Positions 1 through 49,230 of a stretch of DNA of 64,000 nt are shown here, one piece after another (the first letter of the stretch is position 1; every line of letters begins with the position of its first letter). A program made the translations under genes and the position numbers. The stretch spans positions 20,613-84,612 of the forward strand of contig JASFQL010000009.1 in the NCBI GenBank assembly GCA_050115475.1, written 5' to 3'. The notes below the pieces were generated by a model. It ran no database searches, was not told the DNA's origin, and was given only the letters and a program-made list of their open reading frames with translations. The DNA comes from Anaerolineales bacterium (lineage in GTDB: Bacteria; Chloroflexota; Anaerolineae; Anaerolineales; UBA11579).

Positions 1-48
1 TCCCGATCTTACCGACCTTCTCTAAGACGTAACTATTAAAGGTAGCAA

Positions 49-1596
49 ATGAGCAATAAATCAAAGTTAAACCGGCGAGAATTTGTCAAACTTTTCTCAC
101 TCCTTCCATTCACATATTTCCTCCCTGCTCAGGCGCAAACGCAATTAAGTCCAGATTCAAAGCAAAAAAACATATTAATCTTGGTGTTTGACGCGCTATC
201 CGCCTCAAACATCCCCCTCTTTGGCTATCGCCGAAACACAACACCGAAATTACTTGAATTAACAAAACAAGCGATCGTATATCACCGGCACTATGCTGGC
301 GGTAATTACACCACACCTGGAACAGCTTCTTTGCTCACGGGGACTTACCCATGGACGCATCGTGCCATCAAGATGAGGGATGAAGTGATAGAAAGTCTTC
401 GTTCACGAAATATCTTTAATTTGTTCTCAAACCATCATCGCTTTGCTTACACGCACAACGGCTTGGCCGACGTTCTTTTAAATCAGTTTGTAGAGGCAAT
501 CGAGTACAAAGTAAACCGGTGGCAATTATATTTAATTACAGGGCGGGTGATGAATTATCTATTCTCAAATGATGCCGATATGGCAGCAATCGTAGATAAT
601 GCTGCATTCAGTAAAAGTAGTGGGCATTCTTACTCTCTATTCCTTTCGAGATATATTACAAAAATTCTACATGAGATAGAGGCAGGAGTCACTAAAAATT
701 ACACAGACCTCTTTCCAAGAGGTCTTCCAGGTTTTAGAGAGGGAACCTGGCAAGCTTATATCCTGGAAGACGCCATAGATTGGATCAAAAACACAATTGA
801 TGGACTCCCACGCCCCTTTCTTGGATATGTCCATGTACTTCCCCCCCACTTCCCATACAGAACACGAAGAGATTTTATCGATATTTTCGATGATGGATGG
901 AAACCCCCAAAAAAGCCTAAACTTTTCTACAAAACCAAAGGATACTCAGAAGATAACGCAGGGGAATTTCGAAGACAATACGACGAATTTATTGCTTATG
1001 CTGATGCAGAATTCTACCGCTTATTCGATTTCCTTCGAGAATCAGGTTATCTTGAAAACACTATCGTCGTATTCACGACCGATCATGGGGAGATATTCGA
1101 GAGAGGACTGTATCGCCATGGGCATCCATTCTTATATGAACCTGCCATTCACATCCCATTGGTCATTTTCCACCCAGATCAAAAAGAAAGAATAGATGTA
1201 TTTTCGCCAACCAGCGCAGTAGACCTTCTGCCTACGCTTCTCCACTCTATCGGACAGCCCATCCCGGAGTGGTGTGAAGGCAAAGTTTTACCTCCATTCA
1301 ATGAGGAAACCTATTCTTCGGATAGAAACATATTTGCCCTGGAAGCTCGTGAGACTGCTAACCCCTCCTCGCCATTCAGATGCGCTTCAGGTATGATCGT
1401 AAAAGGAAGATATAAATTGACCAAGTATTTTGGCTACGAAGAGCTGCCAAACGGGGAACAGATCGTCGAATTGTTTGACATCGAAAACGACCCCGAAGAA
1501 CTCAATAACCTTTCACAAAAAACGGATTCTCTAACTCAAGACCTATTGAATGAATTAGAAACGAGAATGAGTGAAGCAGACAAGCCTTACATGTGA
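49..1596 (+). CDS. Tat-secreted sulfatase-family (alkaline-phosphatase superfamily, PF00884-like) hydrolase/transferase, Thr-nucleophile variant (paralogue A)
   Basis: Twin-arginine signal NRREFVKL followed by a hydrophobic stretch ending AQA. Sulfatase-like motifs are present: metal-binding region ILVFDALSASN, signature FTTPGTASLLTG aligned to sulfatase C-x-P-x-R-x-x-x-LTG but with Cys->Thr and Arg->Thr, and VVFTTDHGE. A Thr nucleophile is used by LtaS/EptA-type members of this fold. Roughly three quarters of residues are identical to the next ORF. Confidence 0.75.
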   Translation: MSNKSKLNRREFVKLFSLLPFTYFLPAQAQTQLSPDSKQKNILILVFDALSASNIPLFGYRRNTTPKLLELTKQAIVYHRHYAGGNYTTPGTASLLTGTYPWTHRAIKMRDEVIESLRSRNIFNLFSNHHRFAYTHNGLADVLLNQFVEAIEYKVNRWQLYLITGRVMNYLFSNDADMAAIVDNAAFSKSSGHSYSLFLSRYITKILHEIEAGVTKNYTDLFPRGLPGFREGTWQAYILEDAIDWIKNTIDGLPRPFLGYVHVLPPHFPYRTRRDFIDIFDDGWKPPKKPKLFYKTKGYSEDNAGEFRRQYDEFIAYADAEFYRLFDFLRESGYLENTIVVFTTDHGEIFERGLYRHGHPFLYEPAIHIPLVIFHPDQKERIDVFSPTSAVDLLPTLLHSIGQPIPEWCEGKVLPPFNEETYSSDRNIFALEARETANPSSPFRCASGMIVKGRYKLTKYFGYEELPNGEQIVELFDIENDPEELNNLSQKTDSLTQDLLNELETRMSEADKPYM

Positions 1597-1901
1597 ATTT
1601 ATTTCTCACAGCTATGATTTGATTTAAGTAATAACACGACTATATACTGGCGATAATTGGTCTCAGCAAACTTACCATAATGATTATAATCATAGGGGGT
1701 TAGCTATATATTTTGAATAAATGCAACACGCCAATCAAGATTATTATTAATGCAAGATGTATTTTTAGGAAAAGCCGCCCGCAAAACGAGTGCCATGACT
1801 TAGCTATTTGATGGAATTGGTATAATATCTCACAGGATTGTACATAATGGAAATTTACAGATTTCAGTAATCTAAGCAAAAGGATTTTATAGTGGTATCA
1901 A

Positions 1902-3452
1902 ATGGATAATAATCAAAAAATCAACCGGCGAGAATTTGTAAAACTTTGCTCACTCCTCCCTTTCACATATTTCCTCCCTGCACAAGTACAGAAGTCAATT
2001 CATTCGAGTCCAGATGAAAATCCAAAAAACATCTTAATCCTTGTCTTTGATGCGCTGTCTGCCTCAAACGTCCCCCTTTTTGGATATCGCCGAAACACAA
2101 CACCGAAATTATCTGAAATCCTAAATCAGGCCATTGTATACCACAGGCACTATGCCGGTGGTAGTTTCACAACCCCAGGAACAGCTTCTTTACTTACGGG
2201 GACTCATCCATGGACACATCGCGCCCTCAATAAAAGAGGAAGAGTAACTAATGATCTGGTATCACGGAATATCTTCAATTTATTCACAAACCACTATCGC
2301 TTTGCATACACGCACAACGGCTTAGTCGAAAGGCTCTTGGCACAGTTTGAAAATAAAATCGATTACAATGAAAATCGTTGGCAATTGTTTCTCGTGACAG
2401 GTCGGGTGTTGAATTACCTCTTTACAAAAGATGCCGATACGGTTGAACTCGTAGATAATGCAACATTCAATAAAAGTAGTGGATATTCATACTCTCTCTT
2501 CCTCTCAAGATATATTACAGAAATTTTACATGAGATAGAAGTGGGAATCACCAAGAACTACGTAGAATCCTTCCCAAGAGGCCTTCCCAGTTATGGGAGA
2601 TACCAATGGCCAGCTTTTATCCTGGAAGACGTTATTGACTGGATACAAGACACAATTGAAGGACTATCACCTCCTTTTCTTGGATATGTCCATGTACTTC
2701 CCCCACACTTCCCATACAGAACACGAAAAGACTTCATTGACATTTTCGATGATGGATGGGAACCTGCTGAAAAACCAAGAACGGTACTAATTCCAGGACA
2801 TTTAGAAGAAAAGGTCATTGAAAGTCGAAGGCATTATGATGAATTCGTCGCATACGCGGATGCAGAATTCTACCGACTATTCGATTCCCTTCGAGAATCG
2901 GGTTATCTTGAAAATACAATCGTCGTATTCACGACCGATCATGGAGAAATGTTCGAGAGGGGATTGGTTGGTCACATGTCCCCATTCTTCTACGAACCTG
3001 GAATTCACATCCCATTGGTCATTTTCCACCCAGATCAAAAGGAACGGATCGATATACACTCACCAACCAGCGCAGTAGACCTGCTACCTACCCTGCTACA
3101 TGCTACCGAACAACCCATCCCGGAGTGGTGCGAGGGTGATATTTTACCCCCATTCAATCTGGAACCTTATCCTTCTGATAGAAGTATTTTTGCCGTGGAT
3201 GCTAAAGATAATCCAAGCCCCACCTCTCCATTCACGCGTGCTTCAGGCATGATCGTAAAAGGCAAGTATAAATTAACCAAGTATTTTGGCTATGAAGGAC
3301 TGCCAGACAATGAACCCATTATCGAATTATATGACCTTGAAAATGACCCTGAGGAACTCAATGACCTTAGCCTTGAAAAAAGATCTCTTGTCCAAGACAT
3401 GCTGAATGAATTGGAAACGCGAATGAATGAGGCGGACGAACCTTACAGGTAA
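1902..3452 (+). CDS. Tat-secreted sulfatase-family hydrolase/transferase, Thr-nucleophile variant (paralogue B, tandem duplicate)
   Basis: Same architecture and motifs as 49..1596 (NRREFVKL Tat motif, FTTPGTASLLTG, VVFTTDHGE). Collinear along the full length. An extended -10 promoter (TGgTATAAT, about 1818-1826) lies roughly 75 nt upstream. Confidence 0.75.
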   Translation: MDNNQKINRREFVKLCSLLPFTYFLPAQVQKSIHSSPDENPKNILILVFDALSASNVPLFGYRRNTTPKLSEILNQAIVYHRHYAGGSFTTPGTASLLTGTHPWTHRALNKRGRVTNDLVSRNIFNLFTNHYRFAYTHNGLVERLLAQFENKIDYNENRWQLFLVTGRVLNYLFTKDADTVELVDNATFNKSSGYSYSLFLSRYITEILHEIEVGITKNYVESFPRGLPSYGRYQWPAFILEDVIDWIQDTIEGLSPPFLGYVHVLPPHFPYRTRKDFIDIFDDGWEPAEKPRTVLIPGHLEEKVIESRRHYDEFVAYADAEFYRLFDSLRESGYLENTIVVFTTDHGEMFERGLVGHMSPFFYEPGIHIPLVIFHPDQKERIDIHSPTSAVDLLPTLLHATEQPIPEWCEGDILPPFNLEPYPSDRSIFAVDAKDNPSPTSPFTRASGMIVKGKYKLTKYFGYEGLPDNEPIIELYDLENDPEELNDLSLEKRSLVQDMLNELETRMNEADEPYR

Positions 3453-3606
3453 TTTCGTTGCTTATGGCTAGGTCGATCGGCAAACTCAACAATACTAGGC
3501 TCTGGATAACCAGAGTCTTGTTGCTTCACCAGAATTGATTTAGTACTCAGTAAAGCTGTATTATAGTTACAGTCACGAACTTCAACGATTTACCATACAT
3601 AGAGTG

Positions 3607-3665
3607 TAATTAACCCGATGTGCAAGTTTTCATGAAACAACCAAACTTGCACATCGGGTTAATTA
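3607..3665. repeat. Perfect 23-bp inverted repeat (TAATTAACCCGATGTGCAAGTTT / AAACTTGCACATCGGGTTAATTA) with a 13-nt loop, followed by a T-rich run
   Basis: Read directly from the sequence. Arms at 3607-3629 and 3643-3665 are exact reverse complements. It sits between the intact sulfatase-family paralogue and a decayed third copy. Confidence 0.8.
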
Positions 3666-3701
3666 TTTATTTCCTAAGGTTGCCAATACGGTTTAAGTTT
3701 T

Positions 3702-3918
3702 AGACAATGCTGCATTCAATTCAATTAGAGGGTATTCTTACTCTCCCTTCATTTCAAGGTATATAACCAAAATCTTAGATCAATTAGAATTGAGAATGGC
3801 TAAAAACCATACAGACCTTTTTCCACGAGGTCTTCCCGGTTATAACAAAACCTCCTAACCTGCTTATCTCGTGGAAAATGCCATCGGTTGGATTCAAAAT
3901 ATCGTAGAGGAACTCCAG
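3702..3918 (+). pseudogene. Decayed fragment of a third sulfatase-family paralogue (corresponds to about aa 185-265 of the intact copies)
   Basis: Translation DNAAFNSIRGYSYSPFISRYITKILDQLELRMAKNHTDLFPRGLPGYNKTS* followed by ...ENAIGWIQNIVEEL matches VDNAAFSKSSGHSYSLFLSRYITKILHEIEAGVTKNYTDLFPRGLPGF ... EDAIDWIKNTIDGL of the intact genes. It carries an in-frame stop and a frame change, lacks the N- and C-terminal parts, and diverges after 3920. Confidence 0.6.
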
Positions 3919-4214
3919 GTGCGGCTCCTCTGGGATAACCATGCGCTGCTTTGCCTTCCACTCATACCGCAGATCGGTGTTCTCGATCAAATATGCACAT
4001 TTACTCTGATAGGCAGTAAGGATGGCATAACAAGTATCACAACCTCATTGTGAGGCATGTATTTCTCTACATAATCGAAATGTGGGAAAGAAGCAGCGAA
4101 ATTAGCGTGGAATTCCCCATTTTCTTCAGGTCGGATAGCTTCTTGAGTTACAAAAAATAGGATACCAAAGAATTAGGTAACTATCTATCAAAGAATTTTT
4201 GTGGAACTTAATTT

Positions 4215-6842
4215 CTATTCATAATCCCATGGATGAATGCGCCCTCGTAAGAACAACAAAGGCCATAGGATACAGGCAATTGGTAAAATTATATAATGAT
4301 AGCGGAATATACTGAACAGATTCCCAAAGGTAAATACAGCAAGATGAGCAAAAACAGCGACTCCGATAATTAGAAATCGCCAGTCTCTTTCGTATATCAA
4401 CCCGCGAAAAATCAACCCGACAATAATGACATATATATAAGGAGCAGCGCGCCAAGGCGCAGAAAACAGGCTTCTACTCCTGTTTGTTTTTGTTACATAT
4501 TCCCCAAGAATCCTTGCCAATGTGGGTATTTTTGAATCCTGAGAAACTCCAACGAGTTCAGCCAGTGCAGGTGTCACTTGATAGATCAGTTCCCCTGATT
4601 GAGGGTGTATTCGAATTGGAACCAACTGCTGGAATTCTTCAGCCCGTGGATATACACGGAAGAAAATCGAAAGATTACAAATCTGATGTCTCACCTCTAC
4701 CCATGGGGATCGGAAAATAAGAGGAAAATAAGCGCGTACTAATTCATCCAAGTTCTCAGGGTCAAACAGCATAGATTTGTAATAATAGAAATACCGATAG
4801 CCAAGAGAATTATGGCAATTATATTTGTCAAACACAGCCATAGTGGGTAATGCCCTGGATAATAAATCCTGTTCTGCTCGTTGGATTTCAGTTCCAGAGT
4901 AAATATGCGCCCGTACTCGGTGTTCAATAATACGCGCTCCGGCGCCTTCTGTTGCCTTTCCGTGAAAAACGGCTGGTTTCGGTAAATACCGATCAAAGGA
5001 AAAATTCGCGAAGGACATCAAAACAACTGCCGATACGCCAATTAAAACCCATCTACGCCAGTAATTTCTGTAAACAATTATTAGAAAAAATATCAAAGCG
5101 ATCATCTCAAACAAGCCGTTATATCGCAATAAGATAGCACAAGTAATCGTAAAGCCGAGTAAGATTATGTTCTTATTATTCATAATCCACCGACCGTTTG
5201 AATAATATATCTCGAACATAAAAACAGTAATCCAAAGGAATGTGATTGCGTATGGAATATCTTTACTCAGCGTTACTACATAAAACGCATTGGGAGGCAC
5301 AAGTGCTGCAATGACTGCAGCAGTGGTAAGAACAAACTTGGGGAGGCCTGCTTTTTCAAGACGATACAATGCATATCCGGTGGTCAAACTTAATCCAAGG
5401 ATCTGAGCAATTCCAACAGCAGCAGGACTCATCCATACACGTGTGATTAACCAATTTAACAGAGTATGAAAAATCGGGGTTGCTAGATCAAACTCAAACT
5501 CTGTTATTTGCCTCCATTGATCCAATGGAACTTGACTCATGACTCCCGGCCAAAACGCCAATAACATCACAAAACTCACGATTATCATGGGAAATGCGTA
5601 TATAACAGTCCAATATCGAGAAAGGGTCGGGTTTGGTTGATAAATCTTTTGAGTATCTGTCAATAATATAAATAATGCCCACAAGATAAGATCGAAAACA
5701 GCCATTTTCGCCAAAAGACTAGAATTACTTAGAATATTAGATATCGTAGAGGGGGAGACGATTCCAAATAATCCATTTGGTTGAAGTGGGATAAACAGAG
5801 ATAATATTATCGAAGTGCAAAAGGCGAAAATAACCACCTTTCCTAGGATCTTCGTATCTTCTAAGGTAGATATGATTCGGTCGGAAATGGCTCCAAGCGC
5901 CAGCCAGAACAAAATTGTAATAACAGGCCAAGTAAGTAAAGTTAGGAAAAGACTCAAATCGAGACATTGCGTAATCCACCCAGCGATCACCATGGATTGA
6001 ATCATTATTAATAGCGATTGAGTAGAAGAAGCTTTTATTTTTAGGAATCTATCCAGTAGCTGAAGGGCGCGATGAATCAAAGACAAAGAATACAAAGAAA
6101 ACACCACCGCTAAAACAATAAGAATAAACCACCTAACAATATATTGGAATATCGTCGCCCAGGTTAGGTTATACCCTGAAGCAGGGGTCAGTACGATTTT
6201 AGCTTGAATTTCATCCCCGGCATCCATATCAAGCACCGCGCCAGAATCATTGGCAGTGACTTGCACAGGCAAATATTCCTTCCCACCTATAAATTGAAAG
6301 GATATCTTTTTTAATTTTTCAGAATCGGTATAACGATAATATACACAGTCACGTATCTCTAACTCTTTCTCCTCCAACACCCAATGTTGTTCCCCATTTA
6401 TTTCAAAAAAATTTGAAATTTGGATATCCTCTTTCGTTACCCGATTGGTTACTTTCACAAGGATGGGATAGCTAGTCTTCTCCTTATCGTTTGACCAACC
6501 AGGGCAAATCCCAATTTCATGTTGAACCTCAAATATCCATAAGGATCGTCCAGAAGCTAAAACAACCCCCCAGACAGCGATTAAATAGACAATAGTCTTA
6601 ATCGTGTATGCTTTTCGTAAATTCTTTGATACCAATTGGTTTTTAACAAAGGTGAAGATTAATCCAATAGAAAAATAGAAGATCAAACATCCAACTACAA
6701 AAATCACCCCATGTAAAAATAAGGAAGTATTCCACCGCAAATATGTATATAGGGCTATGACTATACTGATGAACATGGCCACGGCAATCTTAAGTAGGAA
6801 CTCCGACCGGTTGGGATGATTATCTTTACAAGATATGGCCAT
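4215..6842 (-). CDS. Large polytopic membrane protein (875 aa, more than 15 predicted TM helices), function unknown; possibly a GT-C-like glycosyltransferase or envelope polymer protein
   Basis: Long ORF with many hydrophobic 20-residue segments. Low GC like the adjacent paralogues. Divergent from the glycosyltransferase genes at 7073. No specific catalytic motif recognised. Confidence 0.55.
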   Translation of the reverse strand: MAISCKDNHPNRSEFLLKIAVAMFISIVIALYTYLRWNTSLFLHGVIFVVGCLIFYFSIGLIFTFVKNQLVSKNLRKAYTIKTIVYLIAVWGVVLASGRSLWIFEVQHEIGICPGWSNDKEKTSYPILVKVTNRVTKEDIQISNFFEINGEQHWVLEEKELEIRDCVYYRYTDSEKLKKISFQFIGGKEYLPVQVTANDSGAVLDMDAGDEIQAKIVLTPASGYNLTWATIFQYIVRWFILIVLAVVFSLYSLSLIHRALQLLDRFLKIKASSTQSLLIMIQSMVIAGWITQCLDLSLFLTLLTWPVITILFWLALGAISDRIISTLEDTKILGKVVIFAFCTSIILSLFIPLQPNGLFGIVSPSTISNILSNSSLLAKMAVFDLILWALFILLTDTQKIYQPNPTLSRYWTVIYAFPMIIVSFVMLLAFWPGVMSQVPLDQWRQITEFEFDLATPIFHTLLNWLITRVWMSPAAVGIAQILGLSLTTGYALYRLEKAGLPKFVLTTAAVIAALVPPNAFYVVTLSKDIPYAITFLWITVFMFEIYYSNGRWIMNNKNIILLGFTITCAILLRYNGLFEMIALIFFLIIVYRNYWRRWVLIGVSAVVLMSFANFSFDRYLPKPAVFHGKATEGAGARIIEHRVRAHIYSGTEIQRAEQDLLSRALPTMAVFDKYNCHNSLGYRYFYYYKSMLFDPENLDELVRAYFPLIFRSPWVEVRHQICNLSIFFRVYPRAEEFQQLVPIRIHPQSGELIYQVTPALAELVGVSQDSKIPTLARILGEYVTKTNRSRSLFSAPWRAAPYIYVIIVGLIFRGLIYERDWRFLIIGVAVFAHLAVFTFGNLFSIFRYHYIILPIACILWPLLFLRGRIHPWDYE

Positions 6843-7072
6843 ACGACTCCTCGAATATCAGTGTTTACCGCACAATTATAAACAAAAATAAGAATAATCA
6901 AAACAAGACTTTAAGTGTCCAGAGCCTTTATTTATTTGCCTCAAACCGTCATGTCTAAAATGCATAGTAAAAGGGTTAGGTATAATATTAGACCAACGAA
7001 AAATACCATTCATGCCTCCTGAATAACAACCCAAACAGGAGAATGCTCTTATAGATTTTTGTCGAAAAAATT

Positions 7073-8833
7073 ATGGACCGATCAACTCATAACAACTTTG
7101 CACAATTAATGGAAACCCTCACCAGTACTTCACCCCACAATTGGGGGGAAATCGCTGAATTACTCGAAAGCCTACGAAATTCTGTCTCCCGCACTCCTTC
7201 TACGTGGGAAACCTTCCTCAAAAATTGTACAGGGGGGACAGCCTTCTTGACCTTCGATTACGGTGTGGATGGGGTCTCTATCGAGATCGCCAAATACGCC
7301 CAATCTCTGGAAGATTTGTACGCAGAGGTCGGGGAACCCGCCATCCACCTTATCGGTGGGGATTTCTACTCCCAGGCAGATACGGTGATGGATCCCGGAT
7401 GGCAGCGCTTCAAGATCGAGGGGATCAACGGCTGGTCGAAGTGGGCGGAGGGGAAATGGTTCGGGAAGCTATTCTATGAAGAGATGCCGGAGGGAAGTCA
7501 GCTCTCAGACGAGTTGGCGGTCGAGATGTATGCCCTGGCAGTGAGTATCGCTGAAAAATTAGGAGGGTATATCGTTGAGAATAACATCGGTCTGCTCATC
7601 CCCGTGAACGTGTCCTCCAACCCGGGCAACCTCGCCCTGGGTCTGGCGACAGCCATCGTGAGTGAAGGTCTGGGGATGTACGTTTTCAACTCGAACCACG
7701 ACTTCTTCTGGGATGGCGGGAAACCACCCTCTGAGCGAGAACCCGGAGAAGAACCCGGGGTGAGAGACCACTTTTTCAAGAATGCAGACAACCACTCGTT
7801 TTTCAGTCTATTCGAATCACTCTTCCCCTGGAATGGGCGGCGTTGGCTGCAGGTGAACATCAACCGCCTCCAGTCGGCTACCTTGATAGAAAAGTACGGC
7901 TTCTCCCCTAATCAGATCTATGAGTTATCTACAGCTGTGAGTAAACGCTTCTTCGAAGAATACGGACAGGCTGAAGTCAAGGTTGCCCGCCTGCGTATGG
8001 GCCACATCCTATCGGACGGAAAAGCCGTCATCCACCCCACTCCCATTGAAGAGTACCTGCAGGAGTTGGGAGAATGGATGCAGAATCAGATACCTCGTGT
8101 TGTAGGACGGCAGGATGGGTTGACATTGGACCCACAATCAGACAATCTCATCTATCTCCTGCAACCAACACGTGTGGTTGCTCGAAAACGGATCGAACGG
8201 GACTTCGAGCTATTGGAAGCCCTGCTGCAAAAAGGGTCACTGCGTGAAGCTTTCGAAGCAGATAAGGCCCTTCAGCTCGTGATGCACATCACCGGCCCGA
8301 CCCCCATCGAACACCAGGCGGATCTCGAAAACGTGCTAAACGCTTATGTGGACGTCCTCGCCTCCGTTCCGGATGAGATCGGGGACAGGCTCTTTACGGC
8401 TTTTTCGGTTGGAAACGAAGACCACCCCTCCTTCCGGGAGAAAGGTTTCAAACGCCTGACCATCGAGGAGATTTACCGGATGGCGACGGTTATCCTATTC
8501 CCCAGCGAAACGGAGGGGCGCGGCCTGCCCATCGTGGAGAGCAGCGCCAGCGGCGTGCCTATCGTTTGCAGCCGCTACCAGCCAGAGGAAGTTTTCGCCG
8601 GCGTGGTCGGGGAGGAGCTGCCGGAGGATAAACAAATCCAATACACGTTGTTTCCCGAAGGAGCCTTTACGGAAAACTTCCTCAATGAAGTGGCCGATTT
8701 ACTCTTACAACCTGAAAAATTCCAAGCGCGGCGAGAACACAACCGGAACGCTGTACGTTTGCGTTACAGCCGAGAGTCGCTAACACGGCGGTTCGAGGAG
8801 TTATTGAAAATCCTCCACGGACTAGTCCATTAA
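7073..8833 (+). CDS. GT4-family (GT-B) glycosyltransferase with an N-terminal extension of roughly 350 aa of unknown function
   Basis: C-terminal motif ILFPSETEGRGLPIVESSASGVPIVCS is the characteristic GT4/GT1 E-x7-E region. The N-terminal two thirds have no recognisable motif. Confidence 0.65.
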   Translation: MDRSTHNNFAQLMETLTSTSPHNWGEIAELLESLRNSVSRTPSTWETFLKNCTGGTAFLTFDYGVDGVSIEIAKYAQSLEDLYAEVGEPAIHLIGGDFYSQADTVMDPGWQRFKIEGINGWSKWAEGKWFGKLFYEEMPEGSQLSDELAVEMYALAVSIAEKLGGYIVENNIGLLIPVNVSSNPGNLALGLATAIVSEGLGMYVFNSNHDFFWDGGKPPSEREPGEEPGVRDHFFKNADNHSFFSLFESLFPWNGRRWLQVNINRLQSATLIEKYGFSPNQIYELSTAVSKRFFEEYGQAEVKVARLRMGHILSDGKAVIHPTPIEEYLQELGEWMQNQIPRVVGRQDGLTLDPQSDNLIYLLQPTRVVARKRIERDFELLEALLQKGSLREAFEADKALQLVMHITGPTPIEHQADLENVLNAYVDVLASVPDEIGDRLFTAFSVGNEDHPSFREKGFKRLTIEEIYRMATVILFPSETEGRGLPIVESSASGVPIVCSRYQPEEVFAGVVGEELPEDKQIQYTLFPEGAFTENFLNEVADLLLQPEKFQARREHNRNAVRLRYSRESLTRRFEELLKILHGLVH

Positions 8834-8850
8834 TCAAAAAGGAGACCATC

Positions 8851-9972
8851 GTGCGGATTGGATTCATCGAAGACACTCATTTACATGGAGGCACCCAGAT
8901 ATGGGTTGCTGAGGCGACACGCGCTTTCATGGACCGGGGCGAGGACGTGACCGTGATCACGCCACACCAAAGCTGGGTAGCACAACGCTGTGAGGAGGCC
9001 GGAGCACAGATCGCCGGATATGATTGGGATGAGGTGGTGGAAGAAAACGAAACGGACCAGGATATCTGGACGGAGGCCTTGGAGGAATGCGACGTGGCGG
9101 TGTGCACTGTCCACCCACCAAGGGAAGGCTTCCACTGCTCGGTGTTCGCGGCGAAATGTATACGGAAAGCGGGCTTGAAGACCCATTTGATCCCTAAAAC
9201 CGGCACCATCGTACCCGAATACGTCCGTGAGTTCTACCTGCCAGATGAACGCATCAAGTCCTCGGTGATCGCCATCGCCGATTTCACCCGCCGATACCTG
9301 ATTGAGACATATAAGATCCCATCGGAGAAGGTCACGCTTATCTACCAGGGCACAGAAGTCGAACGTTTCTATTCTACGCCAGGGGGGAAGGCTGAAGCGC
9401 TGAAACGCTATCCCCTACCGGAAAAGGCTACCCCCATCCTGGCAAGCGTGGGCTCTTTCGAACACCGCAAGGGTCACCCGGTCCTGTTCGAGGCGCTGGC
9501 TCAACTGGCATCCGGACCTTTGCCTAACATTCACCTAATGATGGTAGGAGATGGGCCGGACGAGGCTATGCTGAAAGAGATGGTCAAGCGGATGGCGATA
9601 GAAAACCAGGTGACTTTCTTCCCCTTCACGAATGAGCCGAAGTATGTGTTCGAACGCATCGACGCTACAGTTTTGCCCAGTTTGTATAAAGAGGGGCTGC
9701 CGAACGTTTTACTCGAGTCGATGTCGATGGATGTGCCGGTGGTGGCCTCAGATCTAGGGGGGGTAGGAGAGGTCGTAGTAGATGGGGAGACAGGCTACAA
9801 GGTCGAGCCGGGGGATATCCAGGGACTGGCAGAGGCTATCACTAAATTGTGGGAAGACCAGGAAGCCTATACGCGCATGCGCGCCAACGTACGAAAGCTG
9901 ATGGTGGAGAATTTCGACAAGGAGAAGCAGTTCGACGCGTTTTTGGAATATTTCAGGAAGGTAGTGAGTTAA
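8851..9972 (+). CDS. GT4-family glycosyltransferase
   Basis: N-terminal Rossmann region MRIGFIEDTHLHGGTQ and C-terminal KEGLPNVLLESMSMDVPVVASDLGGVGEVV (GT4 signature). Lies 18 nt after the previous glycosyltransferase, so probably an operon. Confidence 0.8.
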   Translation: MRIGFIEDTHLHGGTQIWVAEATRAFMDRGEDVTVITPHQSWVAQRCEEAGAQIAGYDWDEVVEENETDQDIWTEALEECDVAVCTVHPPREGFHCSVFAAKCIRKAGLKTHLIPKTGTIVPEYVREFYLPDERIKSSVIAIADFTRRYLIETYKIPSEKVTLIYQGTEVERFYSTPGGKAEALKRYPLPEKATPILASVGSFEHRKGHPVLFEALAQLASGPLPNIHLMMVGDGPDEAMLKEMVKRMAIENQVTFFPFTNEPKYVFERIDATVLPSLYKEGLPNVLLESMSMDVPVVASDLGGVGEVVVDGETGYKVEPGDIQGLAEAITKLWEDQEAYTRMRANVRKLMVENFDKEKQFDAFLEYFRKVVS

Positions 9973-10053
9973 CCTTTTTAACCACGAAAGTACAAAAACA
10001 CGAAGATAATAACGGAAAAACTTAAGACATTATTCCATGAGTAAGAGAATACT

Positions 10054-12971: not shown

Positions 12972-13364
12972 TCAACGCCTAAGGAAGCGGTTATCATAGC
13001 GGGGTTTTAATGGACCGGTGTCTGTGAGACTACGATCTAAAGCCCAATGTCCAATATCAGAAACGGGCTGGTAAAGATTTGGTCGTAAGGCTGAAAGGAT
13101 ATCTACGGCAAAGTCGCGGCGCCAATCGTTTGGCGCATTTATCGAGATGTAAATCATATAATACAGATGGGGAAGATGGGCGCGGTCTTCCCAATTCTTA
13201 ATCGTCTGGTAGGAAACACCTTCCCCCAAATCAGCAAGGATTTGATTGAGGGCAACAGCAAAATCACGAAGGGAAAGTGGATGACCGTTTTCTCCCAGAA
13301 TTTGCCGGTAAGCGTAAACGATGTCGGCAACAGCTCGTCTGATCGGCAGTGTGTGATCAATCAT
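12972..13364 (-). CDS. Hypothetical protein (possible HTH-containing)
   Basis: 130-aa ORF. Weak HTH-like segment VSYQTIKNWE. Confidence 0.35.
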   Translation of the reverse strand: MIDHTLPIRRAVADIVYAYRQILGENGHPLSLRDFAVALNQILADLGEGVSYQTIKNWEDRAHLPHLYYMIYISINAPNDWRRDFAVDILSALRPNLYQPVSDIGHWALDRSLTDTGPLKPRYDNRFLRR

Positions 13365-13520
13365 CAGTCTATTTATTTCATCAGAACGTTTGTTCTATTA
13401 TACATTGGTTTTTATCCCTTGGCAAGAGTTTCGATTGAAAATCGAAAGGCAAATATGAAGTGAATGACCCCTTATTATTTCACCACAAAGTCACATGGGA
13501 AAGAAGTCATTCAGTTGAAT

Positions 13521-13600
13521 AGTGGTCATTAATCAGGGATCAGGTAATCAGGGACTAGTAATCAGGTAATTAGGTGATTCGGTAACTACGTTACTATCCT
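13521..13600. repeat. Short direct repeats (GTAATCAGG variants) plus a GAATACGCAATAC motif at 13667-13690, flanking the tandem array
   Basis: taatcagggatcaggtaatcagggactagtaatcaggtaattagg read directly. The motifs are shared with the dispersed repeat family further right. Confidence 0.5.
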
Positions 13601-13687
13601 TTTTACATATCCGTGATTTCTATATTTAATTACGCTATTGAAAAGGAAACGAAAAAATACCAGTGACACGAAATACGGAATACGCAA

Positions 13688-14835
13688 TACTCTTTCCCCA
13701 ATTCTCTACTTAAATTTTTGGATTATTTGCCCGCAAACTGGTTTGATATTTAAAAGTAAGTCACCCATCAGGAGGAGGGCTAATGCTTCGCATTCGCTTG
13801 GGAGAATGGGGAAAAAGGCAGTTTGAAAATTAATTGTATTTTTTCCGAAGCTCTTCAATAGATGCTATCTTCTCCCATTCTCCACTTAATAATAATGGTA
13901 TTCGCCTAATGGGATTCTTTGCGGTTAAAAGTAAGTCGCCCATCAGGAGGAGGGCTAATGCTTCGCATTCGCTTGGGAGAATGGGGAAAAAGGCAGTTTG
14001 AAAATTAATTGTATTTTTTCCGAAGCTCTTCAATAGATGCTATCTTCTCCCATTCTCCACTTAATAATAATGGTATTCGCCTGATGGGATTCTTTGCGGT
14101 TAAAAGTAAGTCGCCCATCAGGAGGAGGGCTAATGCTTCGCATTCGCTTGGGAGAATGGGGAAAAAGGCAGTTTGAAAATTAATTGTATTTTTTCCGAAG
14201 ATCTTCAATAGATGCTATCTTCTCCCATTCTCCACTTAATAATAATGGTATTCGCCTGATGGGATTCTTTGCGATTAAAAGTAAGTCGCCCATCAGGAGG
14301 AGGGCTATTGCTTCGCATTCGCTTGGGAGAATGGGGAAAAAAGCAGTTTGAAAATTAATTGTATTTTTTCCGAAGCTCTTCAATAGATGCTATCTTCTCC
14401 AATTCTCCACTTAATAATAATGGTATTCGCCTGATGGGATTCTTTGCGGTTAAAAGTAAGTCGCCCATCAGGAGGAGGGCTATTGCTTCGCATTCGCTTG
14501 GGAGAATGGGGAAAAAGGTAATTTGGAAATCGGTTGTTTTTTTATGAAGCTCTTCAATAGATAGTATTTTTCCCCATTCTCCACTTAATATTTGGATTAT
14601 TTGCCCGCAAACTGGTTTGATTTTTAAAAGTAAGTCACCCATTAGGAGGAGGGCTAATGCTTCGCATTCGCTTGGGAGAATGGGGAAAAAAGCAGTTTGA
14701 AAATTAATTGTATTTTTTCCGAAGCTCTTCAATAGATGCTATCTTCTCCAATTCTCTACTTAAATATTTGGATTATTTGCCCGCAAACTGGTTTGATTTT
14801 TAAAAGCAAGTCGCCCATCAGGAGGAGGGCTGACG
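13688..14835. repeat. Tandem array of about 6.5 copies of a highly structured 175-bp unit (two unit variants). Each unit carries SD + ATG/TTG + 16-codon micro-ORF (MLRIRLGEWGKRQFEN).
   Basis: Period of exactly 175 bp (SD-ATG at 13783, 13958, 14133, 14308, 14483, 14657). Units are over 90% identical. Internal inverted repeats CCTGATGGG/CCCATCAGG, GGAGAATGGG/CCCATTCTCC and GCTTCG/CGAAGC. The overlapping 67-aa minus-strand ORFs are frame-shifted artefacts of the repeat. Confidence 0.9.
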
Positions 14836-15006
14836 GGCGACTCAGCACAAGGAGGAGATGTGCACTACGGAGTTGTCATTTGGATGACTCAGCGATGCAA
14901 CATCTTACACATATTATACTGATAATTAAGAGAAAGATTGTTAGAAAATTGTAAGAATCCCATGAAGATATCTATTTTTCTAGTCATGAAAGAGAGTAAG
15001 AAACAG

Positions 15007-15522
15007 TTATCCACTCTTACCTAAATCGCTGGTTTCGCGATAATCAACATGAAGTTCGTCACAAAATCGTTTAACTTTTTCTTCAGGTATCTGTTTGGAG
15101 ATAAACATGGGATCATCGAAGAAAGCATCGTGCCATTCCAAGAGGACCTGGTCTTGTTTATAGACATGCAGGTGGATGGCCACCTCAGGTGAAGCCCGAT
15201 TTTCTGTTAATTTAGACAAGGTTTCAATATGCGCAGGCGTCATGCGTATGTGGAAGATATTCGGCCGGGGCCAGATGGTCCCTACTGCGACCTTCACCGG
15301 ATTTTCAATGGTATGCTGTTCCAGGAAAGCTGATAGCTCTTTGTCCGGGTACCCCCCTTCTAAATACAGAATCACCTCTTGAGAAAAGATGAACTCCAGG
15401 GCACGCAGAAATATGGGAAAATCTTGAATGGGAGACACCTTCCAAGCAGGAGGATGTAAAGAGATTCCATCAGGATTCAACACCCATTCCAGCCCTAATA
15501 ATTTAAGCAGCCATGGCTTCAT
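15007..15522 (-). CDS. Hypothetical protein
   Basis: 171-aa ORF, no motif recognised. Stop/start junction with the M50 protease gene. Confidence 0.4.
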   Translation of the reverse strand: MKPWLLKLLGLEWVLNPDGISLHPPAWKVSPIQDFPIFLRALEFIFSQEVILYLEGGYPDKELSAFLEQHTIENPVKVAVGTIWPRPNIFHIRMTPAHIETLSKLTENRASPEVAIHLHVYKQDQVLLEWHDAFFDDPMFISKQIPEEKVKRFCDELHVDYRETSDLGKSG

Positions 15523-47501: not shown

Positions 47502-48050
47502 ATGACCATCCCAGACGCAAAATTAGTCGATCAGGCTGCCAAAGGTGATAAAGGCGCTTTTGGAAATTTGTACGAACGTTATCTGGATGAAATTTACCGT
47601 TATGTTTTTTTCCGGCTGTTCAACCACCAGGAGGCTGAAGACCTGACCGAAATGACTTTCCTCAAAGCCTGGGAAGCACTGCCCAAGAGCCGGAAGAAGA
47701 TAAAAAATTTCCGGGCATGGATTTACAGGATCGCACACAACCTTATCGTTGATGAGATTCGGAAAAATCACCCGGAAATGCTGGAAGACAATGCCGTGTT
47801 TCAAGATAACAATTTCAACATTGAAAACCTCGTAGAGAGGGAACAGGAGAACCAGACTTTGGTACGTGCAATCGCCCAATTGGAGAATAATTACCGCCAG
47901 GTCATCGTATTGAGATTCTTCAACCAGATCAGCCATGCAGAAGCGGCTGAAATCCTCGACATCGATGAAGGCCACGTGAGAGTACTCCAATACCGCGGCT
48001 TGAAAAGACTGCGAAAATTATTGGAAAAGGGATCGGCCGATGACGGATAA
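47502..48050 (+). CDS. ECF-type RNA polymerase sigma factor
   Basis: Region 2 (FGNLYERYLDEIYRYVFFRL...EAEDLTEMTFLKAWEAL) and region 4 (SHAEAAEILDIDEGHVRVLQYRGLKRLR). Confidence 0.8.
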   Translation: MTIPDAKLVDQAAKGDKGAFGNLYERYLDEIYRYVFFRLFNHQEAEDLTEMTFLKAWEALPKSRKKIKNFRAWIYRIAHNLIVDEIRKNHPEMLEDNAVFQDNNFNIENLVEREQENQTLVRAIAQLENNYRQVIVLRFFNQISHAEAAEILDIDEGHVRVLQYRGLKRLRKLLEKGSADDG

Positions 48051-49230
48051 ACAGATTTCAAAACTATTCGCTGAATGCCTGGAAGCGATTGAAAAACGAG
48101 GGGCCACCGTCGAACAGTGTCTGGCCCGTTATCCCGCGCACCGAGACGAACTGCGTGAACTGCTCTCCACATTCCAAACGATTCAAGACTCCCCTCCCAT
48201 CTCCCCCCGCCCGGTTTTTCGACAAGTCGCCCGGATAAGATTGGAAAACCTTTTACCCGATCACCCCCAACCTGTAACGTTTTCACGTTCTATCCGTCGT
48301 AAGGGTCGTAAGGAACGAACCGGAAAACAATCTTATCGAAGGAGATTATCAATGAATTGGTTACTTATCATAGCATTTACGGCTTCTTTATTTGCCGGGG
48401 GGACCGGCGTTGCCTATGCTTCTGAAGATTCTCTGCCTGGCGACACCCTCTATGGGGTTAAAAACGCCGTGGAGGATTTACAGTTGGCTTTGTCCGGAGA
48501 CGAAGGCGACGTCGACCTCTTATTGGATTTCATGGGAGAGGACATCAAAGAAATCGAAGCCCTGACCGAGATGGGCAATTACAAATGGATTGAGACGGCA
48601 CTGGACGAATATAACGAGGACATGGATCAACTCACCCAGACCCGGTCACGGATCAGCTACGAGGATGCAGGCTCCGAGGAGTCCCTCAACACTCGCATTC
48701 AAACACAGATTAGCTCTCAACTACAAGACCTGCTGCAGCTTCAAACACGTCTACAGGACCAAACCCAGATCCAGGATAAGCTGCAAGAGACCATCTGCGT
48801 CGCAGAGAACGGCGCCGGATACGGACCTGGTGAGGGTGGACCCAATGAGGAGCCCGGCAGCCCCAACGGTGCCGGCCCAGGAGAACCGCAGGGTGAAGGT
48901 CAGCAGGACCAAGATCAGCCCGGTAAGCCCGAAGACGCTGGTGGACAGAACCAGGACCCCGGCAGCGGGGGACAGGGGGAAGGTCAAGGCGCTGGACAGG
49001 GTGCTGGTCAAGGTGACGGACAGGGAGCGGGAACAGGCGATGGCGTTCCCCAGCTCGGAGGCACCTGTGATCCCACATTGGCAGGGGAAGTCGTTGAAGG
49101 CCAGAACGAAGACGGCAGCGGAGACGGCGTATACTGGACCTGTGATGGCGGGTACTGGCAGTATTACCAGGGACAGGGTGGGAACGGACAAGGACAAGGG
49201 CAAGGGCAGGGACAGGGAGGCAAGCCCTAA
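48040..49230 (+). CDS. Putative anti-sigma factor: N-terminal cytoplasmic domain, one TM helix, DUF5667-like domain, and a Gly/Gln/Pro-rich low-complexity tail
   Basis: Overlaps the sigma gene by 11 nt. TM MNWLLIIAFTASLFAGG. SEDSLPGDTLYGVKNAVEDLQLAL is DUF5667-like. C-terminus GQGEGQGAGQGAGQGDGQGAG...GQGQGQGQGQGG. Confidence 0.6.
   Translation: MTDKQISKLFAECLEAIEKRGATVEQCLARYPAHRDELRELLSTFQTIQDSPPISPRPVFRQVARIRLENLLPDHPQPVTFSRSIRRKGRKERTGKQSYRRRLSMNWLLIIAFTASLFAGGTGVAYASEDSLPGDTLYGVKNAVEDLQLALSGDEGDVDLLLDFMGEDIKEIEALTEMGNYKWIETALDEYNEDMDQLTQTRSRISYEDAGSEESLNTRIQTQISSQLQDLLQLQTRLQDQTQIQDKLQETICVAENGAGYGPGEGGPNEEPGSPNGAGPGEPQGEGQQDQDQPGKPEDAGGQNQDPGSGGQGEGQGAGQGAGQGDGQGAGTGDGVPQLGGTCDPTLAGEVVEGQNEDGSGDGVYWTCDGGYWQYYQGQGGNGQGQGQGQGQGGKP

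Follow-up and report, generated by a model that had tools for sequence, protein, structure and literature searches.

A question that is raised by the genome of an Anaerolineales bacterium (Chloroflexota; assembly GCA_050115475.1) is what is encoded in a tandem array at positions 13688-14835 of a 64,000-nucleotide stretch of contig JASFQL010000009.1 (positions 20,613 to 84,612 of the forward strand), the whole of which was analyzed here and is called the window. A first-pass annotation of this DNA left three candidates: an array of small structured RNAs, a coding array of micro-proteins or leader peptides preceded by Shine-Dalgarno (SD) sequences, and a satellite-like repeat. Our analysis favours the first and speaks against the second, and a neutral satellite is not favoured in view of the mosaic conservation of the units across genomes. 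With moderate confidence, we read the region as a minus-strand small RNA (sRNA) locus, probably a new sRNA family, in which a founder sRNA with anti-SD motifs is followed by a variable array of sibling modules.

The element that carries this reading is the one that had been taken for a degenerate last copy of the repeat (~14800-14906). It is not decayed and is in fact the best-conserved element of the locus. On the minus strand, at the 5' end of the array, this founder of ~107 nt (14800-14906) consists of a 5' imperfect hairpin, a single-stranded CUCCUCCU stretch and a terminator-like hairpin with a U-rich tail. Mean column identity over positions 14906-14800 is 97% in five loci, the window and the related metagenomic loci L056, L066, L067 and L072, and in these four relatives the founder is 92-99% identical; the longer minus-strand stretch 14963-14796 is 92% identical across related loci. 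In the same four loci the flanking proteins reach just 74-85% identity, and the intergenic DNA around the founder has diverged much further. The first anti-SD motif, CUCCUCCU at 14850-14857, lies in the linker between the two hairpins, is unpaired in both the minimum free energy (MFE) and the consensus folds, with a probability of being unpaired of 0.74, and is invariant in six of six homologs, including L073; an alternative fold places it in the 9-nt loop of a 5-bp hairpin (GCACA/UGUGC). The second, CCCUCCUC at 14822-14829, is the loop of the terminator-like hairpin GUCGCCCGUCAG/CUGAUGGGCGAC (14810-14841), a GC-rich stem of 12-15 bp that is followed by UUGCUUUUAA, and here the predicted probability of being unpaired is 1.00. 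The predicted fold of the founder has an MFE of -44.7 kcal/mol (z = -7.0).

Scored with a covariance model (R1) built from five founder sequences, the four close relatives reach 124-135 bits and L073 reaches 63 bits (E 7e-17). In this last locus the terminator stem has been rewritten (GCUGCUCGCUGU/ACAGCGAGCAGC) with its pairing kept, as 7 of 15 pairs are doubly changed and 99% of the cells are paired (alignment A4), and both CCUCCUC motifs, including that of the loop, are retained along with the core AACUCCGUAGUGCACAUCUCCUCCUUGUGC. The consensus structure also holds several G.U pairs and one-sided changes to G.U, which would turn into A.C if read on the plus strand. Owing to the conservation, the fold z-score, the strand-valid G.U pairs and the L073 homolog, we regard the founder, as judged from sequence and predicted structure, as a genuine, selected and structured sRNA with two anti-SD motifs. 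A TATAAT box (14913-14918, minus strand), located 6 nt upstream of the start of sRNA conservation and invariant in the window, L056, L066, L067 and L072, may act as the -10 element of its promoter. Further upstream, the block TTTCTAACAAT (14937-14947, minus strand) is nearly invariant in five orthologous loci (alignment A1) among which the intergenic DNA around it has diverged; it is a candidate promoter or operator element that does not represent a sigma-70 -35 box at 17 nt and was unflagged by the promoter scan.

The array itself is a head-to-tail repeat with a period of 175 bp and ~6.5 copies, counting partial end copies. This earlier description was confirmed by Tandem Repeats Finder (13750-14763, period 175, 5.8 copies, 92% matches, score 1700) and by start-to-start distances of 175, 175, 175, 174 and 175 in a repeat search. 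The 18-mer CCCATYAGGAGGAGGGCT is found 7 times, always in the array and 0 times elsewhere in the 64 kb, where 0.06 occurrences are expected. The array is housed in a gap of 1642 bp with a GC content of ~0.42-0.45, between two minus-strand open reading frames (ORFs) bounded at 13364 and 15007, so the gene-free, low-GC gap of 1.6 kb stands as noted before, and so do the internal inverted repeats of the unit. The two unit variants do not alternate as had been claimed; on the plus strand the order of the spacer types is B, A, A, A, A, B, B.

Along the minus strand, the founder is followed by unit 1 (14634-14809; B-type spacer, with boundaries from the GATGGG[CT]GAC ends and a weak R1 match of 15.4 bits), unit 2 (14460-14633; B-type spacer, a diverged loop and long-hairpin arms that form a perfect 16 bp) and units 3 to 6, all with an A-type spacer (14285-14459, 14110-14284, 13935-14109 and 13760-13934). 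A trailing partial unit (13693-13759, minus strand), similar in kind to those in L056 and L066, holds only a B-type spacer and the 5' arm AGAGAAUUGGGG. Unit 5 served as the reference for alignment A2, the pair counts and the consensus fold. On the minus strand it contains the long-hairpin arms GGAGAAUGGG (14049-14058) and CCCAUUCUCC (13976-13985), a small 8-bp hairpin (13954-13972), the anti-SD motif CCCUCCUCC (13946-13954), the 3' module CUGAUGGGCGAC (13935-13946) and the tail UUACUUUUAA (13925-13934), which forms the opening bases of unit 6. Since three of the window units are 98-99% identical to one another in a metagenome assembly, the exact copy number is uncertain. Two independent same-strain contigs from other samples (L001 and L057) break off exactly at the two edges of the array, which fits with a real repeat.

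Looking at the relatives, the number of full units varies from zero in L073 (with no extra sequence) and L056 (with a trailing partial unit) to one in L066 (again with a trailing partial), two in L067 and L072, where the second unit stops directly after its CCUCCUC motif, and six in the window. Unit length stays within 174-178 nt and the A- and B-type spacers recur in several genomes. Units are more similar within a genome (identity 0.74-0.98) than between genomes (0.53-0.66), a pattern that fits with concerted evolution or repeated expansion. Conservation between genomes is a mosaic: identity is 0.43 in the loop of the long hairpin, 0.52 in the spacer and 0.59 in the small hairpin, and rises to 0.87-0.88 in the long-hairpin arms, 0.93 in the tail, 0.94 in CCUCCUC and 0.98 in the 3' module CUGAUGGGCGAC-UUACUUUUAA. 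The small 8-bp hairpin retains its pairing with 5 of its 8 pairs doubly changed; its arms are GCGAAUGC/GCAUUAGC in the window, GUCAAUGC/GCAUUGAC in L067, ACAAAUGC/GCAUUUGU in L066, and both GCAAUGGC/GCCAUUGC (u1) and GCAAAUGC/GCAUUUGC (u2) within the single genome of L072. Overall, the covariation of the units is above that of 500 of 500 shuffles and of all slid controls. The long-hairpin arms are conserved in sequence without covariation and are missing from the founder. Because of the mosaic conservation and the covariation of the small hairpin, the units appear to be under selection for specific parts and not to be a neutral satellite. As a separate observation on the loops, the distal flank of the array (13635-13660) holds an inverted copy of 26 nt, 73-77% complementary, of the unit-loop segment 13836-13861 and its counterparts in other units, and within this segment TCTAYYGAA is the sole piece of the otherwise unalignable loops that is conserved in all genomes.

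The same comparison bears on the explanation that survives best after the one we favour, namely that the units are a non-functional by-product, made of decaying partial duplicates of the sRNA 3' end that gene conversion keeps similar and unequal crossing-over multiplies or removes. A copy number of 0 to 6 among close relatives, the grouping of units by genome, the scans that found units without a promoter or terminator, and a 3' module identical to that of the founder, as expected from gene conversion, would all suit such a process. Yet it does not account for arms that are absent from the founder and nevertheless conserved between genomes around a freely changing loop, for the double changes that preserve the small hairpin, or for the constrained unit length. 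We regard it as unlikely, while giving it more weight than any of the other rival explanations.

In the sRNA reading that we prefer, the minus strand would be the acting strand of the units as well. It is favoured because the units share modules with the founder (the CCUCCUC motif, the 3' arm and the U-rich tail), because a few point changes in their putative helices yield G.U on the minus strand, and because CCUCCUC is predicted to be the more exposed motif. In the sense transcript its predicted accessibility is 0.55-0.71 against a background of 0.46, and that of GAGGAGG on the plus strand is 0.28-0.62, that is, mostly paired.

A mechanism that would fit these data starts with the founder as a ~107-nt trans-acting sRNA that displays two copies of an anti-SD sequence similar to that of 16S rRNA. 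Its linker motif CUCCUCCU and its terminator-loop motif CCCUCCUC may serve as two seeds that pair with the GGAGG ribosome-binding sites of target mRNAs and block the initiation of translation, in analogy to known C/U-rich sRNAs. Each 175-bp module would add a long hairpin whose arms (GGAGAAUGGG/CCCAUUCUCC) are conserved while its loop is free to vary, an 8-bp hairpin and a further CCCUCCUC(C/A) motif, and would end in the founder's own 22-nt 3' module (CUGAUGGGCGAC-UUACUUUUAA). As the scans of the units revealed neither a promoter nor a terminator, the most likely model is that the modules are made in a read-through precursor from the founder promoter, which would be cut at the conserved AU-rich tails in a similar manner to CcsR1-4. 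Unequal recombination between units may then shift their number (0, 1 and 2 in the relatives, 6 here), and copy number might set the dose of anti-SD seeds. What the comparison shows is conservation, covariation, the architecture and the change in copy number; transcription of the locus, the strand of the units, processing of the precursor and translational repression of targets are predictions of this model.

Several results weigh against this mechanism. The strand assigned to the units rests on little: on the shared module, on a small number of transitions that create G.U, and on a spacer helix that is weak (74% paired, with 12 G.U against 3 A.C). In addition, the window units fold equally well on either strand, and the fold z-scores do not separate the strands (-2.2 for sense and -1.6 for antisense). 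The raw MFE is even lower on the plus strand by ~12 kcal/mol, which can be put down to base composition since the shuffle-normalised z-scores are those just given. Promoter and terminator scans of the units detected no sigma-70-type promoter and no canonical terminator, and inspection of the alignment revealed no conserved -10 in the unit spacers; the same simple scans missed the TATAAT and the hairpin of the founder itself. Read-through of the GC-rich founder terminator, with its 12-15 bp, would be inefficient. The units also lack a 5' arm that could pair with their 3' module, whose 98% conservation is left unexplained. Among the 120 ORF starts of the window that were scanned as targets, the best predicted duplex energy was -22.4 kcal/mol, no better than at random positions, where the minimum was -24.5 kcal/mol. 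Finally, the covariation of the founder derives from one diverged sequence, L073, and the relatives were reached via the flanking proteins, after which their contigs were compared; only 4-6 genomes were sampled.

A bolder option is that the 175-nt units are no extra copies of an ordinary sRNA and represent an undescribed modular kind of RNA. Each module would be a fixed scaffold of conserved arms, a free loop, a covarying hairpin and a conserved 22-nt tail that displays one anti-SD seed. Joined end to end, the modules would give a long transcript with many seeds, and recombination would tune their number (0-6). We hold this to be quite unlikely. If true, such an RNA could be a stoichiometric sink for SD-containing mRNAs, or, if the other strand is the acting one, could titrate the founder sRNA or 30S subunits.

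Another hypothesis, which we find improbable, is that micro-ORFs or leader peptides are translated from the plus strand of the array. Every unit would then be a very small gene, in which a strong SD (AGGAGGAGGG) precedes the codons for a peptide of ~16 amino acids (aa). The SD-preceded micro-ORFs that were reported earlier are present as described: all six in the window start 3 nt after GAGGAGGG, with ATG in four and TTG in two, and encode MLRIRLGEWGK(R/K)QFEN (MLRIRLGEWGKRQFEN in three copies, R12K in two, and one copy stopped at codon 13, leaving 12 codons). In favour of translation are the constant spacing between the SD-like motif and ATG/TTG in all six window units and in 5 of 5 units of the relatives, a start codon that is kept in 10 of 11 units of the window and its relatives, the N-terminus M-x-x-I/S-x-x-G-E-W of most copies, and a change from ATG to TTG that retains the start codon yet breaks a hairpin pair. 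The coding role is not supported, as the ORF length from the homologous start varies (2, 12, 15, 16, 36, 48 and 98 aa, with 2, 15, 36, 48 and 98 aa in the relatives) and the variable sites fall 2/5/4 on codon positions 1/2/3, with no third-position bias; the ratio of nonsynonymous to synonymous changes (pN/pS) of 0.13-1.1 comes from only 9 comparable codons, which makes it a weak test when taken by itself. Codons 2-5 differ by non-conservative substitutions (L/R, R/S, R/C/D and L/S), and these coincide with the compensatory changes of the 8-bp hairpin. Immediately behind the SD, the AUG is part of the 5' arm of this covarying hairpin, a position that would impede initiation, and the residues GEW are explained as the translation of an invariant hairpin arm. 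The promoter scan found no plus-strand promoter inside the units, and L056 and L073, which keep the founder sRNA with zero full units, have no such ORF, and the motif in their sRNA is not followed by a start codon. On the opposite strand the SD-like AGGAGGAGGG reads CCCUCCUCCU, a 16S-like anti-SD that in the conserved founder is located in a hairpin loop. Most likely, then, the ribosome-binding site with its micro-ORF is the mirror image of the minus-strand CCUCC anti-SD motifs.

Longer ORFs are also called over the repeats. In the window, ORFs of 67 aa and 125 aa cross them on the minus strand (13830-14732), and in L067 genes of 98 aa (3444-3740) and 48 aa (3771-3917) have been annotated across the homologous units, in the orientation that corresponds to the window plus strand. 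A period of 175 bp is not divisible by 3, and the hypothetical proteins predicted over the repeats, in the window as in the related contig, are therefore almost certainly spurious.

Less probable still is a plus-strand antisense or sponge RNA, whose six sites complementary to 20-30 nt of the founder (seed and 3' arm) would titrate the founder, or 30S subunits through the SD repeats. This idea draws on the perfect complementarity of GUCGCCCAUCAGGAGGAGGG to the founder loop and 3' arm and on a weak promoter-like site, GTGACA-17-AATACT (13663-13691, plus strand), just before the array. That site scores only 9 of 12, the plus-strand GAGGAGG is mostly paired in the predictions, and the idea leaves the conserved hairpin arms and the orientation of the U-rich tail unexplained. 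Least probable of all is a DNA-level element, in which the palindromes xxxAATGC-N3-GCATTxxx and GGAGAATGGG...CCCATTCTCC would be recombination sites or binding sites of a regulator such as the 130-aa protein encoded downstream: in five of six loci the 130-aa gene comes directly downstream of the array or sRNA, a distant homolog of its product (P0178) is labelled an XRE-family helix-turn-helix regulator by JGI, and the arm sequences are conserved without covariation, but two different perfect palindromes in one genome (L072, L067) fit base-pairing and not one half-site, the 130-aa gene is still there in L056, L069 and L073, where units are lacking, and the protein has no Pfam or PDB match.

Known repeat classes were considered as well. 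CRISPR arrays (clustered regularly interspaced short palindromic repeats) have repeats of ~24-48 bp separated by unique spacers of similar length; here the entire 175-bp unit repeats and only two spacer types, A and B, recur, so the earlier exclusion of CRISPR holds. Miniature inverted-repeat transposable elements and insertion sequences were rejected, as there is no transposase and the units are homologous in place across genomes, and so were iterons.

Searches of larger collections returned little that is related to the repeat. An exact-pattern scan of 185,579 species genomes with CCCATYAGGAGGAGGGCT gave 52 single chance matches, mostly in Streptomyces contigs and none with the second unit motif, and a pattern scan of JGI metagenomes gave one chance match in a GC-rich, apparently coding sequence. 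Viral contigs searched with the founder core gave 0 matches, and a translated repeat ORF, compared with 5.8 billion proteins, retrieved only itself (99% identity, a JGI "hypothetical protein").

The neighbours of the locus are an M50 peptidase, a 171-aa protein and a 130-aa protein, and Pfam and PDB searches with the last two returned nothing. The 130-aa gene (12972-13364, minus strand), which is downstream of the sRNA or array in five of six loci, has a near-consensus promoter, TTGCCA-17-TATAAT (13397-13425, minus strand), with 11 of 12 matches in the promoter scan and the same site in L056; its leader is short and shows no obvious SD. The few named homologs of its product are from Anaerolineales/Chloroflexota metagenome-assembled genomes, and in L069, where this protein is 73% identical, there is no sRNA upstream. 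Between the array and this promoter there are direct repeats TAATCAGGGATCAGG / ATCAGGTAATCAGG (13530-13574; period 14 in Tandem Repeats Finder), and the motif CCTGATCCCTGATTA, a possible operator site, is conserved in L056 (~1080-1110). The 171-aa protein (15007-15522, minus strand) has more than 100 homologs, some of them labelled Elusimicrobia, Phycisphaerae or Nitrospira; those below 74% identity are found in other neighbourhoods with no sRNA. Its gene lies between the M50 peptidase and the sRNA only in the window and L056/L057 and is not there in L066 and L067. Elsewhere in the window, a 24-bp tandem repeat GGACAGGGGGAAGGTCAAGGCGAC of 2.3 copies (48970-49025) lies inside the ORF at 48040-49230, and the GC content steps from ~0.40-0.44 (1-8000) to 0.54 (8001-10000) and back to 0.45, which may reflect a mixture of genes that differ in composition and surround a glycosyltransferase-like ORF.

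What can be said with good support from the sequence comparisons is that a conserved sRNA family without an Rfam family exists in uncultured Anaerolineales. A full-text literature search for sRNAs with anti-SD motifs in Chloroflexi returned nothing relevant, its only result being a review on another subject. The design of an anti-SD seed in a loop, known in Alphaproteobacteria and Firmicutes, would thus have arisen or persisted in a very distant phylum, and the array, with 0-6 copies of a module whose parts are conserved, offers a natural case of an sRNA locus that grows by duplication and possibly tunes the dosage of its seeds. There is also a lesson for annotation: where a strong SD precedes an ATG, the pair can merely reflect an anti-SD sRNA that is encoded on the other strand.

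How, then, does the locus compare with known RNA systems? At gathering thresholds the Rfam scan of the whole window gave no match, and a permissive scan brought up a sub-threshold hit to ar14. On this strand the only families with any score were the CCUCCUCCC sRNAs ar14 (RF02344; 24.8 bits at 14806-14903 on the minus strand and 20.7 bits in L073, cut-off 58.8) and CcsR1 (RF02791; 14.3 bits, cut-off 65.3), both on the minus-equivalent strand, in the window and in L073. Membership in either was rejected, as the scores are less than half of the gathering thresholds. The claim that the array matches no element class is nonetheless too strong, since multicopy anti-SD sRNAs are its nearest analogues.

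In the Nostocales, NsiR1 sRNAs form head-to-tail direct repeats in an intergenic region, with a copy number that varies between strains; each repeat is equipped with a regulated promoter and a terminator of its own and is not known to contain an anti-SD motif. The likeness to our locus is in the intergenic head-to-tail array and its variable copy number, and no Rfam match to NsiR1 was obtained here. ToxI-like arrays of type III toxin-antitoxin systems have repeats of ~34-45 nt located upstream of, and co-transcribed with, an endoribonuclease toxin gene. Such a system was rejected here on the period of 175 nt, on the strong promoter that the downstream 130-aa gene has of its own and on the retention of this gene without units in L056, L069 and L073.

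Closer are the lhrC genes, every copy of which is complete and has a promoter and a terminator to itself. At our locus neither signal could be detected in the units, and the founder alone has a conserved TATAAT and a hairpin with a U-tail. The likeness consists in multiple copies of a CU-rich anti-SD sRNA whose C/U-rich motif is exposed in a loop or linker, as structure prediction indicates here for the linker (0.74), the loop (1.00) and the units (0.55-0.71). There is no sequence or Rfam relationship, and the LhrC motif is UCCC whereas here it is CCUCCUC. In Listeria monocytogenes, the seeds of LhrC1-5 bind the G-rich SD region and block translation, and the copies act additively (PMC4132741).

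The other close analogues are the cuckoo RNAs, with 2-4 adjacent hairpins that each carry CCUCCUCCC in a loop of 9-27 nt (PMC4615179), and among them CcsR1-4, whose cluster is transcribed in Rhodobacter as one precursor that RNase E cuts next to U residues (PMC8034643). Our locus shares with them an anti-SD motif of the CCUCCUC type in hairpin loops, homologous modules adjacent at one locus, and stems that vary while the loop motif stays fixed. It differs in that the motif here is CCCUCCUC/CUCCUCCU and the exact nonamer CCUCCUCCC is absent, that only one motif is clearly in a hairpin loop, of 8 nt instead of the required 9-27 nt, that the host belongs to the Chloroflexota (Anaerolineales) and not to the Alphaproteobacteria, that no DUF1127 gene lies upstream, where cuckoo often adjoins one (CIN1 locus), and that the units are not copies of the founder but longer, chimeric modules of 175 nt, which include a large hairpin with a variable loop. 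Given the low Rfam scores, the different motif and phylum and the chimeric units, the locus is not a member of the CcsR/cuckoo or the LhrC group, and the two are best taken as analogues that it probably resembles in function.

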